This document shows positions 38,519 to 47,390 of a DNA stretch of 64,000 nucleotides, piece by piece. Under the pieces are notes generated by a model. The model saw only the letters and a list, made by a program, of their open reading frames with translations. It was not told the origin of the DNA and did no database searches. How positions within the stretch are numbered: position 1 is the stretch's first letter; each line of letters starts with the position of its first letter. A program made the position numbers and the translations under genes. The DNA is from a virus: positions 1 to 64,000 of IMG/VR virus record IMGVR_UViG_3300027969_000052. One strand, given 5' to 3'.

Positions 38519-39955
38519 ATTCAACATTTTTATGATGGTCAAATAAGACGCTATCTAACACAATTCATGAGATTAATGAGTAGCTTTAGCTATAAAGATG
38601 CTAAGGGCAAACTTATTCAGGTTCCAGTTCGATACGGTGATACTAATCGTCAAGTTGCAAATATTCAACGCAAAAATAGTGAAAACACTATGCCGTCTGC
38701 TCCGATGATTTCTTGCTATATTAAAAATTTAAGTATCGCAAGATCAAGATTACAAGATCCTACTCATGTTAGTAAGGTGCATATTAAAGAACGAGATACT
38801 TGGGTTAATCCTGAAACAGGGCAAGAAGAATACATTAATACTATGGGAGAAAATTATACCGTAGAAAGATTAATGCCTGTGCCTTACGACTTAACATTTC
38901 AAGCAGATATATGGACAACTAATACAGATCAAAAATTACAAATTTTAGAACAATTATTAGTGTTGTTCCGTCCTAGCTTAGAACTACAAACTACCGACAA
39001 CTATTTAGATTGGACTAGTTTAAGTACTCTAGAACTTACAGACATGACTTGGACTAACAGACAAATTCCAGCCGGCACTGAACAAGATATTGACATTGCT
39101 ACTATGCAATTTTTAGCACCAGCATGGTTAACAACTCCTGCAAAAGTTAAACAAATGGGAATTGTTACAAGTATTATTACTTCAATCTTTGTAGAAGCTC
39201 CGGGAACAATTGAAGGCGGTGACTTTAAAAATATCGACTCAGTTAATTACTTTGAAGGAAGATCGCCCTCGAGTATACTAGCAACAACTATAGGAAATTA
39301 TAGTTTGTTGGTTGTAAACAATACCGCTAAACTTGTAGCACCGGGAGTACATGTATCTAATAGTACCGGAGAAGCTCCTGTAAAATATGGATCAGATGTA
39401 AACTGGTATAGAATTCTAGATTTATATCCTGGCAAATTTATTGCGGGATTGACTCAAATTAGACTCATGAAACCTAGTGGTGAAGAAATTAGTGCCCGTA
39501 TTAGTCTAGATCCATTAAATGAATCAATTATGCATTTAGATATAGATGCTGATACAATACCTGCTAACACTGAAGTTCCCCAGGGAAGTGGAAAAACATA
39601 CATAGATGCTATTATAGATCCTACTACATTTGTTCCATCCAATCCAACTAGCGGAATTAGATATCTAATATTAGAAGATATTAATACAGACCCAAATTTA
39701 GCAGTTGCATTAGGTCAAGGTACTGCGGCAACAGCATGGAAAAATAGTGACAATACATATCTAGTAGCAAACGCTAACGACATTATCACCTGGGACGGAA
39801 CTACCTGGTCCGTAATTTTCAGTTCGAAAAGTGTAAGTACGCTAACATATATAACTAACTTACGTACTGGAATACAGTACCTATGGGACGGTGAAATATG
39901 GAGCAAGAGCTTTGAAGGAGAATACGCTCCTGAAAACTGGCGTATTATAATATGA
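38519..39955 (+). CDS. gp15: tail sheath stabiliser/terminator (T4 gp15-like); probable ATT start
   Basis: HFYDGQIRRY N-terminus, VPVRYG, MPVPYDL, DQKLQILEQLL.LF.P; AAGGAG 7 nt before in-frame ATT 38519; first ATG is at 38567. Confidence 0.85.
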   Translation: MQHFYDGQIRRYLTQFMRLMSSFSYKDAKGKLIQVPVRYGDTNRQVANIQRKNSENTMPSAPMISCYIKNLSIARSRLQDPTHVSKVHIKERDTWVNPETGQEEYINTMGENYTVERLMPVPYDLTFQADIWTTNTDQKLQILEQLLVLFRPSLELQTTDNYLDWTSLSTLELTDMTWTNRQIPAGTEQDIDIATMQFLAPAWLTTPAKVKQMGIVTSIITSIFVEAPGTIEGGDFKNIDSVNYFEGRSPSSILATTIGNYSLLVVNNTAKLVAPGVHVSNSTGEAPVKYGSDVNWYRILDLYPGKFIAGLTQIRLMKPSGEEISARISLDPLNESIMHLDIDADTIPANTEVPQGSGKTYIDAIIDPTTFVPSNPTSGIRYLILEDINTDPNLAVALGQGTAATAWKNSDNTYLVANANDIITWDGTTWSVIFSSKSVSTLTYITNLRTGIQYLWDGEIWSKSFEGEYAPENWRIII

Positions 39956-40377
39956 ATATAATTTGTAGTGGTGGAATATTTCTATCTAAAGATACAAAAA
40001 GGCTACTGTTCTTGCATCGTAACCAGGGAAAAACTGCCGGAACTTGGGGTATTGTTGGCGGAAAAAATGAACCAATGGATCAAGCACCCATTGACACTCT
40101 TCAAAGAGAAATTAAAGAAGAATTAGGATTTTTGCCGCAGATTGATAAATTCATTCCTTTAGAACAATACATTTCTAAGGATGAAGAATTTTATTATCAC
40201 ACTTATTTGTTGCTAGTAAAAGAAGAATTTATTCCTAAATTAAACAACGAACATAGTGGATATTGCTGGTGCGATTTAGATCACTGGCCGAAGCCATTGC
40301 ACAACGGCGTACGAGTAACTCTAAATAATAAAATTATAAGAGCTAAAATACAAACCGTAATTGATATCTTAGGTTAA
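39952..40377 (+). CDS. Nudix hydrolase
   Basis: Nudix box GGKNEPMDQAPIDTLQREIKEELG; LNNEHSGYCW...P.PLH. Confidence 0.9.
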   Translation: MNIICSGGIFLSKDTKRLLFLHRNQGKTAGTWGIVGGKNEPMDQAPIDTLQREIKEELGFLPQIDKFIPLEQYISKDEEFYYHTYLLLVKEEFIPKLNNEHSGYCWCDLDHWPKPLHNGVRVTLNNKIIRAKIQTVIDILG

Positions 40378-42069
40378 TTTCTTTCGAACTACTAAAAGAT
40401 AAAAACCGTTCCACCAAGCATTAATATCTTCTTGATCGTTTAATACTACTTTAGAATATAGCACATCGACATTAATTGCACGTATAGCTTCGTCTACTCC
40501 CTGAACTACACCTTCCCAATTAGCGTCATCAACTAAGATAACTGCTTCGTTAGATAAGCACGGTGCATAGTATTTTAAGGCTTTTATTGTAGATCCAATG
40601 TCGTGTGGGCCATCATAGAATAAAAAATCAACATCAGTAATTTCTTCTCTGTTTACCATTAGCATATCGCTTTCGTAAACAATGACTTTATTTTCGCCTT
40701 TGTATCGTTTGACATTGGTAATAAAATCTTCTTTCTTATTTTCCGGCATTACGAACAATTCGTTTGCTGGTTGGAAAGTGTCTTCCCAAGTGTCGACACA
40801 TATTACTTCTAACTTATTATTTTTTAAGGCCGCACATGCTGTTGCTCCTAACGCACTTCCGATTTCTAAATAACGTGTGGAATTGCTTGCAAGTTTATTA
40901 ATTAAACTTTCCATTTTCCAACTTGTTAATCCAATAACATCAATGTCAATATTATTCATTGCACTATGCAATACTGCATCGACTGCATGTTGTACCTTAG
41001 GACTTATCTTTTCTTGTTGTTTCTTACTAACAATTTTATCGCAATACTGACATTCCCAACATTCAAACTTACAGTTCTTAATTTTTTCGCGCCAAATATT
41101 AATTGGTTTTTCTATTAGGTTAGTATCCTCAATAAATTCTTCAAAGCCGTCTGCAAGAATTTCTTCACCTGCAACATATTTGCGAACAATGTCAAGTGTT
41201 TCATTAAATCGGTTTATGCTTTCTCTACCATGCATTTTAAAAACATCAACACCCAAATCAAAGAATTCTTCCCAGTCTGCTCTCCACGGCGGTAAATTAG
41301 CGGTCTTTAAAGGTACCGCAGGATCTTCATGATCCCACTTAGGACAGCTGACTCTGCTAATAGCGTCTGCAAAATACTGTGGTCGATTTTGGTCTCTGGT
41401 ATTATTAAATTCATAATGTTCGTCCATCATTGGGCAAGCCCCTAAACATCCTTCATTTGCTAATAAACTAATAGTAACATCTTTGTTCATTGTTTCTTTA
41501 ACAAACTGTTTGGCTTTTTTTAATCTTAATAATGCATCTCTATCTCGCATTAAATCTCTATCAACACAGATATAATCAAACCCTGCTTTAGCGTAAGCAA
41601 CAAACTCTGCACCTGTTGTTACATTTCTTAAGATCGTATTTTTTACATATAGGTCTGGATACCTATTTTTAATTTGTCCAGTTGCCATCCAGTGTATGTG
41701 CGGAATAATTACAGATCGAATACCTGCGTCATATAATGGTTGAAAGGACTCTAACCATATTTCTAGATATTGTTGGGTTGGGGGTACTTCAATATTATTG
41801 AATGTTGCACACGCAGTTATACCAGTTTCTTGCTGGATATGCAATGCGGCTTCGATAGCCGAAATAGCATCTTGTTGTGTTACAAGCACGTCGCCCATTG
41901 CATCTTGTGCAAAAGGAGGAATCCTTGATGTAAAATATACATCAAAAATCCACTCCTTATATTGTTTACAAAACTCTAAAAAATTATAGAACTGTTGTTC
42001 CGTTAATTTTGGGTTGACCGGCAAGCTGAATATTTTCTGCGTCTTTGACAATGTCTGGTAATCTTTCAT
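40369..42069 (-). CDS. U32-family (Fe-S hydroxylase-type) domain fused to class I SAM methyltransferase
   Basis: N-terminal DAGIRSVII, GFDYICVDRDL, LLANEGCLGACP..DEH, SC, GVDVFKMHGRE (compare U32 KIEGR) and CKFECWECQYC; C-terminal YLEIGSALGAT, CVDTW, FYDGPH, LVDD (Methyltransf_24-like). Confidence 0.8.
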   Translation of the reverse strand: MKDYQTLSKTQKIFSLPVNPKLTEQQFYNFLEFCKQYKEWIFDVYFTSRIPPFAQDAMGDVLVTQQDAISAIEAALHIQQETGITACATFNNIEVPPTQQYLEIWLESFQPLYDAGIRSVIIPHIHWMATGQIKNRYPDLYVKNTILRNVTTGAEFVAYAKAGFDYICVDRDLMRDRDALLRLKKAKQFVKETMNKDVTISLLANEGCLGACPMMDEHYEFNNTRDQNRPQYFADAISRVSCPKWDHEDPAVPLKTANLPPWRADWEEFFDLGVDVFKMHGRESINRFNETLDIVRKYVAGEEILADGFEEFIEDTNLIEKPINIWREKIKNCKFECWECQYCDKIVSKKQQEKISPKVQHAVDAVLHSAMNNIDIDVIGLTSWKMESLINKLASNSTRYLEIGSALGATACAALKNNKLEVICVDTWEDTFQPANELFVMPENKKEDFITNVKRYKGENKVIVYESDMLMVNREEITDVDFLFYDGPHDIGSTIKALKYYAPCLSNEAVILVDDANWEGVVQGVDEAIRAINVDVLYSKVVLNDQEDINAWWNGFYLLVVRKKLT

Positions 42070-42817
42070 CTTTACTCTCTAGCATTTTATCAATCTGGCC
42101 TTGTACGCCCAGTGATATATTATGTATGCCTGCTTGCACCATGCCACTGTATTTCATGGCTAATGATAGCGTTTCGAGCTGATCTTCTTCCGGCATCATT
42201 GAGATGCTTTCCATATTACCAGAACCTACACGACCGTAAGAAATAACATCAATTGCGGCTTGTTTGCCCATACGTGCAATCCAGTACTTGCGTTCTTCGT
42301 CTGGGTTATCCTCAGCATAGTAACGTAAATCTTCTTCAGTTTTAGCAAAATGCTTAACTACATCTAAGAATGCGTTAATTTCGCGTTCGGCTTGAATTAG
42401 TTTGCGTTTATAAATTGTAAGATCGTATTCGTTTTTATCAATGTCTACTTGTAACATTTCTTTTGCGATCTCATCAGTTGCTTCTGCTTGGTCGCGCAAC
42501 CATTTTTTCTTAATTAATTCAGCCTTACGGAGGCTAGTTTTAATTTCTTGATAAGCGTGATAACGAACCTCAAGTTCCATATATGCTTGACGTACTTGGC
42601 GCCATGGAGTTACTTGGCTTCGAGCAACGAAGTTTGCGCATTGGTAAGCAGTCATTCCCATATTGGAATGAATAGCATAATGCATGATTTCTTTTTCAAA
42701 ATCTTCTAGATCATATCGATCTAAAAAGTCTTCGTCTACTCGCTTTGCCCTAGGTTCAGGATGTTTTGAATTAAGTGTATCTTGTATTAATGTTGATTTG
42801 TTAGAATTGGAATCCAT
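41984..42817 (-). CDS. coiled-coil hypothetical protein
   Basis: 277 aa with a long central heptad region; overlaps both neighbours. Confidence 0.75.
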   Translation of the reverse strand: MDSNSNKSTLIQDTLNSKHPEPRAKRVDEDFLDRYDLEDFEKEIMHYAIHSNMGMTAYQCANFVARSQVTPWRQVRQAYMELEVRYHAYQEIKTSLRKAELIKKKWLRDQAEATDEIAKEMLQVDIDKNEYDLTIYKRKLIQAEREINAFLDVVKHFAKTEEDLRYYAEDNPDEERKYWIARMGKQAAIDVISYGRVGSGNMESISMMPEEDQLETLSLAMKYSGMVQAGIHNISLGVQGQIDKMLESKDERLPDIVKDAENIQLAGQPKINGTTVL

Positions 42818-43736
42818 GTGGCACCTCAGTTGTTCTAATGTTACTATCGGGGCCTTCCGTTAGTCCCATTGACTTTGCCTGATTAATCGGTATAGGAAGA
42901 CCAAAATACTGCTCGTATTTAATGTTCATATCCCATACAGTGGTGCATGATTTGAAATCCTTAACTATCTTCTGTTCTTGTACTAATAGATCAGAAAGTG
43001 CGTCTTGATATACTTCGGCTTTTTCTAAAATTCTATTAGCTAGTTCTGTTTTATCTTTACCGTGCTCGACAGCTAGATAATCTAAAAACGGAGTGCGTGA
43101 TCCATTTTGACCTTGTTTGTCTAGCCACTCTCTAGCCTCGTGTTTTTGTGTTTCCCAGCTCACAGCTTCGCATGTGCCACCTGGACGCATACGCAAGAAA
43201 CGACGTTCAAATTCATCTTGTACTGCTTCTCTAGCAAATATAAACATAAATTCAGCTACTTGGGAAACAATATTATCTGTTAGTTCTACTTCGCGTTTGA
43301 TATAGTTAGGAGCATCAGGATTGATTGTCGCTTCAGTGTTTGGAATCCAAATCTTTGCCGCGGCACGATAGTCGCCAAAAAACTGACGGCCATTGAGTGC
43401 AAGTTCTTCTGTTATAAGAGTAACTTTCTCTCCTTGCCAATATGGGCTCAAAGTTTCGTATAAGTGTTCGCTCATGCAAACACAAGTAACTCCTAGCAAT
43501 TGATATAATTCTTGGCACCATAATGCAGGATCGCCAGTAGAAGTATCATACCATTTTGGATCTATAGTATTACAACCTACAATCATAAAAACTTTACCAG
43601 CTTTTACAAAGGGGTTAGCTGGTGTTTCTGGGCCTTGGTATAATGCGGGAGGTAAAGCCTCGACGTTTGGAGCAATCGAAACGTCCCAAAAGTCTACTGA
43701 ATAGTTACCGCTCTGAGATTGCTGTTCTTCTGCCAT
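42801..43736 (-). CDS. tail fibre assembly-like protein
   Basis: C-terminal E..SW..Q..EA..W...TPFL..LA...G.....L..RIL.KA motif, typical of proteins encoded beside fibre genes. Confidence 0.6.
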   Translation of the reverse strand: MAEEQQSQSGNYSVDFWDVSIAPNVEALPPALYQGPETPANPFVKAGKVFMIVGCNTIDPKWYDTSTGDPALWCQELYQLLGVTCVCMSEHLYETLSPYWQGEKVTLITEELALNGRQFFGDYRAAAKIWIPNTEATINPDAPNYIKREVELTDNIVSQVAEFMFIFAREAVQDEFERRFLRMRPGGTCEAVSWETQKHEAREWLDKQGQNGSRTPFLDYLAVEHGKDKTELANRILEKAEVYQDALSDLLVQEQKIVKDFKSCTTVWDMNIKYEQYFGLPIPINQAKSMGLTEGPDSNIRTTEVPHGFQF

Positions 43737-43737
43737 A

Positions 43738-44859
43738 TTATACTCCTGGTCGTCCTGATGATGCTACTGTTGCGGCCGCGCTCATTGCTACGCCCGAGCT
43801 TGCTCCGTAGTGACCTTTGTTACGTGTCGTCGGTCCCATGCGTGTTTGTGCATCGTTATTATAAGTTGTTTTATCGCACATATTATTTTGCTGGCCGTCA
43901 TATTGACCGGTCATATATCCCCAGTCTTGCCCCGCCATCATAACGTCTTCGCCGTATGCAGAAAGTTGGCTAAAATAACTTTGAGCGTTACCGCTTGTGT
44001 CATTGAAACGTACACGACCTTGCTGTACGTTGTTACCTGTTCCAATATAATGCCAACCATACTTAGTTGTTAGACATTTCATAAATCCGTCTGGAGTAAC
44101 ACCAATTGGGCCGCCAAACCAACTGTCATTTGAGTGGTACATACCGCTCTGACCGCCGTTAATAGACCACCAACTAATGTCTTGGCCTGCACCACCAGTA
44201 CAGTTACCACCACCTCGGTTATTACCGTTTGTAGTGTACATAATTTCTGTAGCAAAGTGCATCTTTTCTGTGCCTTGTGGGCCACCGGCTGTTGCATATC
44301 CATATTGGTAATTGGCCGCGCTTGACGCTCCGAATACACGACGACCGGAAGACATGTCCCAACCGCCGACTGTGCCGTATCCCATAACGTCACGAGGATT
44401 ATCACCGTTGTAGCCAAATGAGTACGGACTGAATGTTCCGCCGCCCCATGTACGACTAATACCTGTATATAAGTTAAAGCTAGATGTATGGTTCGATGTG
44501 CCGCCAAAGCCGTTGTTCATACCTAGAGCATAACCGTTGTAATCTGAATAAAATCCGTCCATGTAGTCGCCAGCGCGATCTACTTGTTCACCACAATAAT
44601 ATGTTATTTCAGAAAGCATCCATGTTTTATTCAACGCTCTCCAAGAATTACTGCCCTTGTAGCCAGCGCAACTAAATCCGTGAGTAATAATGCTACGATA
44701 TCGATATCCAGCTACTGGATTGCCGCCTGGGAATCCTGGATAACTCCAGTACGCTTGTGTTCCGTCAGTTACTAAGGTAGCGCCCCTAGATTGCGAATCA
44801 GCGGAAGGTAAGGGATATATTCCGGGGATTACGTTTGTGTTACCAATGTATAAAGGCAT
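43738..44859 (-). CDS. Gly/aromatic-rich repeat protein, putative beta-propeller fibre-tip/adhesin
   Basis: Roughly six kelch-like units (GFSCAGY, GYALG, GYATAGG, WWSING, HYIGTG, GYMTGQY); own TAAATA (44891-44886) and AGGA SD. Confidence 0.6.
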   Translation of the reverse strand: MPLYIGNTNVIPGIYPLPSADSQSRGATLVTDGTQAYWSYPGFPGGNPVAGYRYRSIITHGFSCAGYKGSNSWRALNKTWMLSEITYYCGEQVDRAGDYMDGFYSDYNGYALGMNNGFGGTSNHTSSFNLYTGISRTWGGGTFSPYSFGYNGDNPRDVMGYGTVGGWDMSSGRRVFGASSAANYQYGYATAGGPQGTEKMHFATEIMYTTNGNNRGGGNCTGGAGQDISWWSINGGQSGMYHSNDSWFGGPIGVTPDGFMKCLTTKYGWHYIGTGNNVQQGRVRFNDTSGNAQSYFSQLSAYGEDVMMAGQDWGYMTGQYDGQQNNMCDKTTYNNDAQTRMGPTTRNKGHYGASSGVAMSAAATVASSGRPGV

Positions 44860-44888
44860 GTTATTAGCTTCCTATATTTGTTATATAT

Positions 44889-47390
44889 TTATGGCGTCAA
44901 CGCCTTAATTTGCGATTTTAGCTCTTCTATTTGAGCTTGCTGTTCTTTCATAGCTTCTACTAGCAAGGGCACTAGACGCTCATAGTCGACACCTAGATAG
45001 TTTTTGCCAGATTTTGACTGCTCATTTTCGTCTAAATCAAAACTTGCAGGAGTAACTGCTACTGGGTAAACAGCGTTTACTTGTTGTGCAGAAAGACCAC
45101 CTTTAACTTGACCTGCTTTGTAGCCTAATGCAACTGCTGTTTCGTTAGGAGTATAGTAGAAACCTTCTAATTGTAGCACTTTTTCAAGCGCATTTTCAAT
45201 TTTTCCTATACGATTCTTGAGTCTTTCGTCTGAATAGTTGGTGTAAAGGTCGCCTGTAACAAATAGTGTGCCGTTGACCTGCATGTTGTTACCGTTTGTT
45301 TGGAAGTTATTATTACCTGCACGGTAAATGTAAAGTTCGCCTGTTGCGTTTCCACGAATATATGTTCCGCCGGCGTAGCTATAACTACCAAAGAACAAAG
45401 AACCACCGGTTGTTATATTAATATCACCAGATCCGCCAACTACTAGGCAGGGATTGTTACCATTAGAAACACCGTTTGAAATTGCTAATGCACCGCCCGA
45501 ATTTGATGGTCCAGTAATAGTATGTATTGAGCCGCCGTTAGTTACTTGTAAGAATGTAGCACCAAGTGTTGTGAAGTTTCCTGTAGCCGCTGTTGTAGCA
45601 CCTACAGTACCATTGTGTGGTCCGCTAAATGCACTACTTAAAATACCCGTGCTTGGGTTGAATGTAATCTTACTTGAAGCAACATACATCGTAGTAATTG
45701 CACCACTTACAGAACTAGTAAATGTTATGTATCTTGCCGCATTAGTTGTTGTGTCGTCAGTAACACTCACACCAGCCTGCGCCCACTGCACACCAGTACC
45801 TGTAGTTTGTAAGAAATATCCGTTAGTACCTGCAGAAGCTCCTGCATATAGAGCGCCGCCCAAATATAAACCTGATGCAATACTTACACCGCCGTCTACT
45901 CTTAAAGCACCGGTACCTAAAGTTGCACTTGCGGCTGTTGTTGAATAAATTCTAGCATCGCCGCTGGTACCGTTAAAGTCAATACGAACGTTTGCCGCAC
46001 CGTCTGATAAAATAATACGACCGTTTTCAACACCAGAGCCCGTTGCACTACCAATAATAGTAACGTTATTTTGTGCGCCCAATGCATTACCCGAGTTATA
46101 ACCAATTGTTACGTTTTGACTACCACCAACTAACTGGTTGCCGGCATTATATCCAACTGCGGTGTTACTTGCGCCGCCTGCTAAGTTTCCTAGTGTCTGA
46201 TAACCAATTGCTGTATTTTGGTTAAATGCGCCGTTGCCTAAGCCCAGTGATCGATAACCAATAGCAACGTTGTTGATCATACTAGCGTTATTGCTGGTAT
46301 ACATTGCTTGGTAGCCGATGGCTACGTTGTTACCTCCTGTGGCTGTTTGAGCTAATAGTGCTTGATATCCGATAGCAGTATTATTGGCCGCACTAGTAAG
46401 TGCATTACCTGATTGGAAACCAATTAATAAATTACCGCCACCTGTTAATAAATTTGCGCCTGCCGCGTTACCAATAACAGTATTTGATGAAATGCTACCT
46501 GCTCCCCGTCCAACCCTAATGCTATTATGATATGCATCACCGTTAGTAACAAGGCCACCACCTGCTGAAATACCACCGTATGTAATTATCGCACCTGTAC
46601 CTGTCGATCCAACACCTGATGTTACTGTAATATCTGTAGATAGGGGAACTGTAGCGCCAGTTGCGCTTAGGCTTAAACTTTGAATTTGGGTAGCAATAGC
46701 ATTTGCTGATTGACTAGCTGACGAAATTAAGAAATTTAATTGTCCAGTACCTAATTGAATTTGTCCATGGTGTCCAGTTCCCGATACGTAAGTAGTACCT
46801 ACGTTATTGTAACTGTTTAGACCGACGCCTAACGGATATGTACTAGTACCAACTTGTAAAGCAATGCTCGAACTGTCTGCTACATCATAAAAATATCCAG
46901 CGACGTTTGTAGTAGTTGAAACTGTAATGCCGTATGTAGATCCTGCTCCGCCAACGCCTAAGTTTGCGTTCATAGCAAACGATCCACCAATGTTTAAGTT
47001 TCCTGAAACACCGACTCCACCTAATACTTGTAGGGCACCAGTAGTTGTATTTGAACTTGCTGTGTTGTTGCCTAAATAAACAACTCCCTGATATTTGGCA
47101 ATATTAACTGTGCCGGCGTCTGTAATCTGTAGACTAGGAATACCGCTCTTATCAGTTACAGAATAAATGTTACCAGTTACAGAGTTGACAATCGCTTTAA
47201 TTTGACCGGTTGATCCCTCAAACGATATACTTCCGTCATCAAGTACGCGAATAAAAGTAGACGCAGATGTAGAGGTTCCTACAAGACCGTTTGTAGGATT
47301 AGCGCCAGTAAATCTAATTGTGGCTTCTGTGCTTCCAGCACCCAGCGGGCCCGAAGGTGTTATAACTATATTACGATCTGTTAACGGCAT
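44889..47390 (-). CDS. tail fibre with C-terminal peptidase S74 intramolecular chaperone
   Basis: YSDERLKNRIGKIENALEKVLQLEG...GLSAQQV..VYP.AV...VDYERLVPLLVEAMKEQQ; N.AIGY.AL beta-roll repeats; TGAL.V.GG repeats. Confidence 0.88.
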   Translation of the reverse strand: MPLTDRNIVITPSGPLGAGSTEATIRFTGANPTNGLVGTSTSASTFIRVLDDGSISFEGSTGQIKAIVNSVTGNIYSVTDKSGIPSLQITDAGTVNIAKYQGVVYLGNNTASSNTTTGALQVLGGVGVSGNLNIGGSFAMNANLGVGGAGSTYGITVSTTTNVAGYFYDVADSSSIALQVGTSTYPLGVGLNSYNNVGTTYVSGTGHHGQIQLGTGQLNFLISSASQSANAIATQIQSLSLSATGATVPLSTDITVTSGVGSTGTGAIITYGGISAGGGLVTNGDAYHNSIRVGRGAGSISSNTVIGNAAGANLLTGGGNLLIGFQSGNALTSAANNTAIGYQALLAQTATGGNNVAIGYQAMYTSNNASMINNVAIGYRSLGLGNGAFNQNTAIGYQTLGNLAGGASNTAVGYNAGNQLVGGSQNVTIGYNSGNALGAQNNVTIIGSATGSGVENGRIILSDGAANVRIDFNGTSGDARIYSTTAASATLGTGALRVDGGVSIASGLYLGGALYAGASAGTNGYFLQTTGTGVQWAQAGVSVTDDTTTNAARYITFTSSVSGAITTMYVASSKITFNPSTGILSSAFSGPHNGTVGATTAATGNFTTLGATFLQVTNGGSIHTITGPSNSGGALAISNGVSNGNNPCLVVGGSGDINITTGGSLFFGSYSYAGGTYIRGNATGELYIYRAGNNNFQTNGNNMQVNGTLFVTGDLYTNYSDERLKNRIGKIENALEKVLQLEGFYYTPNETAVALGYKAGQVKGGLSAQQVNAVYPVAVTPASFDLDENEQSKSGKNYLGVDYERLVPLLVEAMKEQQAQIEELKSQIKALTP

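Follow-up and report, generated by a model that had tools for sequence, protein, structure and literature searches.

A four-gene cassette behind the tail-fibre genes of aquatic phages encodes a divergent U32-like barrel fused to an O-methyltransferase-like domain

The first 64,000 nucleotides (nt) of the IMG/VR virus record IMGVR_UViG_3300027969_000052, referred to here as the window, carry a cassette of four minus-strand genes directly behind a tail-fibre gene. The source record spans 129 kb and is rated 37% complete. Three of the genes encode a six-bladed Kelch-type β-propeller of 373 amino acids (aa) and two conserved proteins of 311 and 277 aa, while the fourth encodes a 566-aa protein in which a very divergent relative of the U32 superfamily, marked by seven invariant cysteines, is joined to an O-methyltransferase-like domain. 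The four families are inherited together across phages of different backbones. By analogy with characterised U32 enzymes, the fusion protein and the 277-aa protein most likely hydroxylate and then O-methylate a ring carbon, and a protein of the fibre block is, tentatively, the leading candidate for their target. The features on which this proposal rests are as follows (positions refer to the window):

43738..44859, minus strand: gene of the 373-aa protein, a predicted six-bladed Kelch-type β-propeller (PHROG 1417; T4-GC 351 family)
42801..43736, minus strand: gene of the 311-aa conserved protein (PHROG 1604; T4-GC 352/1102 family)
41984..42817, minus strand: gene of the 277-aa conserved protein (PHROG 1409; T4-GC 353 family)
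40369..42069, minus strand: gene of the 566-aa U32-like/O-methyltransferase fusion, from the list of open reading frames (ORFs)
40975..42069, minus strand: U32-like TIM barrel with a C-terminal Cys-rich helical extension, residues 1-365 of the 566-aa protein
41344..41448, minus strand: codons of the invariant C208, C212 and C242 (CX3CX29C) of the 566-aa protein
41041..41073, minus strand: codons of the invariant C333, C337, C340 and C343 (CX3CX2CX2C) of the 566-aa protein
40372..40956, minus strand: class I, metal-dependent O-methyltransferase-like domain (Methyltransf_24), residues ~372-566 of the 566-aa protein

A gap of 1 nt separates the 373- and 311-aa genes, and the reading frames of the 311- and 277-aa genes and of the 277- and 566-aa genes overlap by 17 and 86 nt, respectively. 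The initial annotation of this DNA had described four packed or overlapping minus-strand genes directly after an S74 fibre, and their sizes and coordinates are confirmed; the late promoter which it placed in front of them is present as a promoter-like box, a motif match only.

The 566-aa fusion protein

The AlphaFold2 model of the 566-aa protein, based on an alignment of 83 sequences, is confident (predicted local distance difference test, pLDDT, 93.1) and comprises two domains. The modelled N-terminal domain has a TIM-barrel fold and is matched by Foldseek to entry 5d88 of the Protein Data Bank (PDB) with E 2.3e-7 and TMt 0.67; other barrels (pyruvate kinases, aldolases) score TMt of 0.47 or less. 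In a language-model search, the nearest clusters, viral and bacterial, carry the U32 family PF01136 in 20% of their members, and one of them is named 'Peptidase U32 (Fragment)'; peptidase U32 is also the depositor's name for a 420-aa relative. Profile alignment with hhalign against five E. coli U32 sequences gave a probability of 31% and E 5e-4, pairing residues 70-184 with UbiU 45-153 in a register that agrees with the structural match. The same family profile aligned with the single UbiU and UbiV sequences was not significant, a PDB-sequence search with the barrel-family profile returned nothing significant, and Pfam assigned no family to 10, and then to 8, distant or longer relatives of the barrel.

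The seven cysteines of the domain are invariant in all 83 aligned sequences and in 9/9 rows of an alignment which takes in bacterial relatives of 27-38% identity. Invariance from phages to bacterial metagenome-assembled genomes (MAGs) extends to about 15 polar residues. When compared with E. coli UbiU, TrhP and RlhA, the CX3CX29C group occupies the place of the canonical U32 cysteine loop. The seven cysteines probably hold one or two metal or iron-sulfur (Fe-S) centres.

Several results weigh against a U32 hydroxylase of the familiar kind. Residues 1-365 match no Pfam family at E up to 10, so that PF01136 stays below its cut-off; the PF01136 model, run against the complete 129-kb record, gives no hit at E up to 10 and matches a single member of the 83 in the barrel family, with E 0.033. 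The canonical [4Fe-4S]-binding U32 motif is CX6CX15CX3/4C, with CX6CX16CX38C in UbiU, according to passages of PMC6747719; in the E. coli proteins the ligands are C170/C177/C193/C197 of TrhP and C169/C176/C193/C232 of UbiU. This motif is absent from the family and replaced by CX3CX29C and CX3CX2CX2C, and catalysis of the TrhP or UbiU type is therefore an extrapolation. Furthermore, Methyltransf_24 is found in only 16 of 83 diverse barrel relatives at E up to 1, and methylation is thus not obligatory for the family. Of the U32-methyltransferase fusion proposed in the initial annotation, the Methyltransf_24 domain and the U32 TIM-barrel fold stand, whereas the PF01136 match and the canonical cysteine motif do not. 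On the strength of the model, the domain is a U32 relative at the level of superfamily and fold and a non-member by Pfam model and cysteine motif; in sequence terms the barrel appears as a very divergent, Pfam-invisible branch of the superfamily with a different set of cysteine ligands.

In the C-terminal domain, residues 401-515 match Methyltransf_24, the sole Pfam family found in the protein (41.1 bits; cut-off 26.3), and the modelled domain has a Rossmann methyltransferase fold. Of the 19 rows with an aligned C-terminal region, 17 retain the blocks E-[VI]-G..G, [VI]-D-x-W, F-Y-D-G-x-H and D-D-A-N, which comprise the Gly-rich motif that binds S-adenosylmethionine (SAM) and conserved acidic residues of the metal or substrate site; by analogy, these would act as metal ligands. 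Among the structural neighbours of the methyltransferase are catechol and sugar O-methyltransferases, and TrmR is tied with many O-methyltransferases that do not act on RNA.

The barrel also occurs in other fusions. Two rows of the barrel alignment (P0124 and P0127) have C-terminal domains other than the methyltransferase, and one member carries DUF7483 with E 1.3e-51; such fusions might hint at the substrate. The N-terminal extension of a longer relative (P0136) bears no likeness to the 277-aa protein, and the genes next to the stand-alone relative in locus L035 are without a Pfam family.

The partner proteins

The 373-aa protein had been called propeller-like, and both the model and the fold searches agree on a six-bladed Kelch-type propeller. 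It is rich in glycine and aromatic residues and matches no Pfam family, Kelch included, at E up to 10. Residues 1-49 are modelled with low confidence, yet a conserved motif is present there. The T2/S16-type adhesin gp38 has no entry among the 50 matches listed by either fold search of the propeller, all of the listed ones being propellers. The propeller gene is tandemly duplicated in eight loci, and two propeller relatives are fused to LamG domains, which is behaviour of the fibre type and counts in favour of a role at the fibre.

Kelch domains serve substrate recognition in other enzymes and adaptors. The four proteins could accordingly make up a modification enzyme of several subunits in the cytoplasm, in which the propeller recognises the substrate; the propeller would then not be part of the virion, and the adjacency to fibre genes would be incidental. 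The translational packing and strict co-inheritance of the four genes would suit such an enzyme, as would the fact that no record labels the propeller a virion protein. However, duplication in tandem and fusion to LamG are what surface or receptor-binding proteins typically show, two unrelated phage backbones share the place behind the fibre genes, and the core enzyme occurs without any propeller in Ralstonia phages (as a pair with the 277-aa protein) and in bacteria, all of which makes this arrangement unlikely.

For the 311-aa protein, the initial label 'fibre-assembly-like' finds no support. Its central block is well conserved, but it has no Pfam match at E up to 10 and no significant PDB-sequence match, and the models Caudo_TAP (PF02413) and DUF4376, tried as candidates for a fibre-assembly identity, match nothing in the genome at E up to 10. 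The 277-aa protein, initially labelled a coiled-coil protein, contains two strongly conserved blocks with non-repetitive motifs; it has neither a Pfam match nor a significant PDB-sequence match and shows no likeness to U32 or SCP2 proteins. PDB-sequence searches with the profiles of all four families searched returned nothing significant. Complex prediction for the U32-like domain (residues 1-365) with the 277-aa protein gave no answer (score 0.00) and counts neither way.

Distribution and co-inheritance

The 566-aa protein matches 126 isolate-phage records, comprising 123 cyanomyoviruses and 3 Ralstonia jumbo phages, and the 277-aa protein matches 128 of the same make-up plus two. The propeller matches 111 isolate-phage records by tblastn, which misses diverged copies such as that of S-ShM2, found by a hidden Markov model (HMM). 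In cyanomyoviruses, the cassette corresponds to the genes T4-GC 351-354 (or 351/1102/353/354) of about 120 records; in Syn33, P-SSM4 and S-ShM2 they come after the fibre genes T4-GC 345-347, and their annotation reads hypothetical or 'sericin 1 precursor-like'. The cassette is an accessory element, since cyanophage gp15, with matches in at least 439 Synechococcus and cyanophage records, is far commoner.

Synteny was assessed with HMMs in the 27 loci whose upstream flank measures 3.2 kb or more. Of these, 26 contain the 277-aa family, 25 the propeller and 21 the 311-aa family, always upstream of the enzyme gene, on the same strand and in one of two orders. These counts overstate the number of independent observations, because some of the sequences behind the HMMs came from the very loci that were counted, and several loci are near-duplicates (L007/L009, L015/L017, L018/L019, L027-L029 and L011/L030). 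Linkage of the U32-like gene to propeller genes, on which the initial annotation had staked its proposal, is nonetheless present in 25/27 related loci. Among individual isolates, P-SSM4 and S-ShM2 possess all four families and S-SM1 has none of them at the same slot.

An enzyme gene that is functionally uncoupled from its neighbours, that is, an accessory gene in its own right which happens to lie in a fibre region prone to recombination, would explain why a petE/gnd insert of about 5.7 kb parts it from the other three genes in S-ShM2 and why gene order varies among loci; fibre regions are known hotspots of cyanophages (passages of PMC3037559). Such independence is nevertheless very unlikely, given that presence is all-or-none across divergent phages, that the reading frames overlap, and that even Ralstonia jumbo phages, at 24-38% identity, retain both the 277-aa and the U32-like gene.

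The cassette is not confined to cyanophage backbones. The gp15-like protein of the window (38567-39955, plus strand) has its closest relatives in Sinorhizobium phage Phosso (36%) and Agrobacterium phage Atu_ph07 (32%) rather than in cyanomyoviruses, and the presence of the cassette in a phage of this kind indicates, from sequence comparison, that it has moved between phage lineages as a unit.

As a side observation, the slot of S-SM1 between the fibre genes and denV (L052:10100-14725), which the cassette occupies in other cyanophages, holds five other hypothetical genes and two 2-oxoglutarate-dependent (2OG-Fe(II)) oxygenase genes, which may represent a swap of the class of oxidative tailoring enzyme.

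Proposed function and possible targets

The observations are best accommodated if the cassette is a mobile, late-expressed accessory unit of aquatic T4-like phages. Its 566-aa protein would be bifunctional, combining an Fe-S TIM barrel with a metal-dependent O-methyltransferase. The barrel would hydroxylate a ring carbon without O2, and the methyltransferase would then O-methylate the new hydroxyl group (C-H to C-OCH3). The 277-aa protein, as the constant partner of the barrel, would act together with the fusion protein, and the Kelch propeller and the 311-aa protein would be inherited along with the enzyme. A ring carbon is proposed because every known U32 substrate is a ring carbon, either of a quinone precursor or of a pyrimidine (passages of PMC6747719, PMC6599085 and PMC10990095). 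A chemistry of hydroxylation followed by O-methylation, already put forward in the initial annotation, is plausible by this analogy and is strengthened by a pairing with an O-methyltransferase in bacteria (see below), although the canonical cysteine motif that would be expected for it is missing.

The target would be a protein of the fibre block, either the propeller itself or the fibre it serves, and this is the assignment to which we lean, with less than even confidence. A more specific version, in which the fusion protein hydroxylates tyrosine or tryptophan residues of the propeller or of the fibre tip without O2 and then O-methylates the resulting catechol-like group, is improbable as it stands.

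A fibre target has to be held against a number of observations. In GenBank, T4-GC 351-354 lack the label of virion protein, though neighbouring genes have it. The virion mass spectrometry of PMC3037559, as described in passages of that paper, used S-SM1; this phage is free of the cassette, and so no virion proteome from that source covers the cassette genes. In Ralstonia jumbo phages only the 277-aa and U32-like pair is retained, without the propeller. Phage RP31, for example, encodes a 277-aa-like protein (ORF137), a stand-alone U32-like protein (ORF136) and then a DUF401/CitMHS-like membrane protein (ORF135). A homologous permease (E 1e-47 or better) lies downstream on the same strand in 17 of 35 other loci (among them L018:7118-8053, L026:11595-12530, L032:11599-12468, L034:11638-12516 and L036:10016-11056) and is directly adjacent in five; a permease in this position fits a small-molecule substrate better than a protein. 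Finally, five bacterial MAG loci contain stand-alone relatives of the barrel in which all seven cysteines are present, and within flanks of about 5-9 kb they hold none of the three partner families and no permease.

The bacterial neighbourhoods are informative in themselves. In L049 (8914-12719), the stand-alone U32-like gene is followed by genes for a family-5 solute-binding protein (SBP_bac_5) and an O-methyltransferase of the Methyltransf_2 family, with gaps of 15 and 7 nt; since this second O-methyltransferase is unrelated to that of the cassette, it lends independent support to hydroxylation followed by O-methylation. In L047 the U32-like gene is preceded, at a distance of 2.8 kb, by a canonical Peptidase_U32 gene (E 5e-32) and followed by a B12-binding radical SAM gene; two long flanking ORFs of this locus lack a PDB-sequence match and may be shadow ORFs in DNA of 70% G+C. 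On the 6.7-Mb contig of L050, the U32-like gene shares its neighbourhood with an AraC regulator, UPF0489, an S41 peptidase and an IS1595 transposase. One Deltaproteobacteria MAG (70% G+C) carries three U32-like copies on three contigs (L047, L048 and L051). To judge by gene content, these contexts taken together look more like small-molecule or peptide tailoring than like virion assembly.

These contexts speak for an enzyme that, together with the 277-aa protein, methoxylates a metabolite or a free peptide in the infected cell. The permease, where present, would move the compound or a co-substrate, and the propellers would either be co-located only or bind the product. In favour of such tailoring are the Methyltransf_2 and solute-binding genes of L049, the S41 peptidase of L050, the radical SAM and canonical U32 genes of L047, the permease, which follows the enzyme directly in RP31, the lack of a propeller in Ralstonia phages, and the catechol and sugar O-methyltransferases among the structural neighbours of the methyltransferase domain. 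On the other hand, the lineage of the window has no permease homologue, either in the 129-kb record or in its 93%-complete relative G001. Propeller and enzyme occur together in nearly all of the synteny loci, all four families are jointly absent from S-SM1, and a late-promoter placement in a fibre block would be unusual for a metabolic gene. We regard small-molecule or peptide tailoring as possible, if somewhat unlikely, and retain a fibre-block protein as the preferred target.

Phage backbone and tRNA genes

The relative G001 is 79% identical, 331.6 kb long and 93% complete. Given a size of this order and a source record that is 37% complete at 129 kb, the phage of the window is probably a jumbo phage of about 350 kb. 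Neither the window nor the 129-kb record, which represents 37% of the genome by its rating, contains a tRNA gene; relatives of the phage encode tRNA-Thr(UGU) and tRNA-Pro(UGG).

In G001, ARAGORN also reports a tRNA with anticodon CUA (L041:302-376), labelled tRNA-Pyl, a possible amber suppressor, beside the ordinary tRNAs Gly-UCC, Asn, Thr-GGU, Pro-GGG, Thr-UGU and Met.

These genes touch on the possibility that the cassette is a phage version of TrhP plus TrmR which produces 5-hydroxy- and then 5-methoxy-pyrimidines in the tRNA of phage or host, or in phage DNA. The characterised U32 proteins TrhP and RlhA hydroxylate pyrimidine C5 in RNA (PMC6599085), passages of PMC12783734 describe the re-use of tRNA-modification enzymes for DNA by cyanophages, and the tRNA-Thr(UGU) and tRNA-Pro(UGG) of the relatives lend slight support. 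We nevertheless consider nucleic-acid modification distinctly unlikely. The cysteine motif shared by TrhP and RlhA and the corresponding Pfam match are missing, TrmR does not stand out from the non-RNA O-methyltransferases, and the linkage to a propeller and two uncharacterised proteins has no counterpart in the tRNA pathway. Nor do the late-promoter-like box and the place in the fibre block fit, and the 129-kb record is devoid of tRNA genes.

Neighbouring genes and the late-promoter-like box

The cassette is framed by the following features:

44889..47390, minus strand: gene immediately upstream of the cassette, for an 833-aa tail fibre that ends in an S74 chaperone domain
39952..40377, plus strand: convergent NUDIX gene, which closes the downstream end of the cassette
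44886..44892, minus strand: T4-type late-promoter-like box CATAAATA (one base upstream counted in), motif match only

The Peptidase_S74 domain of the 833-aa fibre scores 33.5 bits against a Pfam cut-off of 22, and a 217-aa LamG protein and a 4439-aa fibre are encoded further upstream. Unlike many related loci, the window has no permease gene after the cassette. The box CATAAATA lies 27 nt upstream of the ATG of the 373-aa gene. On both strands of the window, the motif ATAAATA is rarer than expected by chance (10 sites versus 26.3 expected; 100 of 100 shuffles had at least 10), and six of the ten sites are followed, at a distance of 7-38 nt, by the ATG of an ORF of 100 aa or more on the same strand. 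This placement is as expected of T4-type late promoters, as far as an argument from a motif goes, and the depletion, together with the survival of sites near long ORFs, is consistent with selection against stray late promoters.

Significance

The family is widespread among aquatic phages and also present in some bacteria; its phage setting is that of a methyltransferase fusion, co-inherited with propellers near tail fibres. Identification of its substrate would reveal either an enzymatic tailoring of the proteins by which phages recognise their hosts or a new phage-encoded modification of metabolites or nucleic acids, and either outcome would give a function to four 'hypothetical' genes in more than 100 sequenced cyanophage isolates. 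Should tyrosine or tryptophan residues prove to be the target, receptor-binding proteins would carry dihydroxyphenylalanine (DOPA)-like or methoxy-aryl chemistry, which could tune adhesion or host range. This would be the first protein substrate of a U32-type enzyme, and the first case in which a ring of a virion protein is methoxylated by an enzyme.

Comparison with known systems

Only recently have U32 proteins been recognised as a class of O2-independent hydroxylases, and to our knowledge only three substrates are known for them, namely ubiquinone precursors, U34 of tRNA and C2501 of 23S rRNA. The chemistry proposed here is closest to that of TrhP (YegQ; TrhP1/TrhP2 in Bacillus) and TrmR (YrrM), which convert U34 of tRNA to 5-hydroxyuridine (ho5U) and then to 5-methoxyuridine (mo5U). 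The genes yrrM, yrrN and yrrO adjoin in Bacillus; in the 566-aa protein, the two predicted activities are fused. E. coli TrhP has the cysteine pattern C-x6-C-x15-C-x3-C and a PF01136 match, whereas the 566-aa family has CX3CX29C and CX3CX2CX2C and lacks PF01136. The partners also differ: a Kelch propeller and two uncharacterised proteins in a late fibre block have no counterpart in the TrhP/TrmR pathway.

A second parallel is offered by UbiU-UbiV, the O2-independent ubiquinone hydroxylases which act with UbiT. In passages of PMC6747719 they are described as Fe-S U32 barrels with an obligatory partner, with O-methylation taking place afterwards. The barrel of the cassette would likewise have a protein partner, but in the searches made the 277-aa protein is neither a U32 nor an SCP2 protein, and the cysteine pattern of UbiU-UbiV differs from that of the cassette barrel. 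Among solved structures, Mk0906 of Methanopyrus kandleri (PDB 5d88) is the closest, with 9% sequence identity; it lacks the Cys-rich helical extension of ~80 residues and the methyltransferase that are found in the phage protein.

Among propellers, the 373-aa protein can be compared with Kelch propellers (KLHL17, Keap1, NanM/YjhT) and with six-bladed propeller lectins. It differs from them in a conserved N-terminal segment of ~50 residues and in its Gly- and aromatic-rich composition, and it has no Pfam Kelch match.

The nearest relatives of the cassette as a whole are the T4-GC 351-354 genes of marine cyanomyoviruses (Syn33_042-045, PSSM4_032-035), which belong to the same four families and stand in the same order behind tail-fibre genes. 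Their products are about 27-43% identical to those of the window, and the phage backbone differs. The initial annotation had held that no system of this composition was described. In the literature searched, no functional description of the four-gene set was found, and passages of PMC3037559 do not discuss T4-GC 351-354; the genes themselves, however, are already present in many cyanophages as hypothetical proteins. While the genes had been sequenced before, what is new is a deep branch of the U32 superfamily with its own ligand set, its fusion to a methyltransferase and its gene context.

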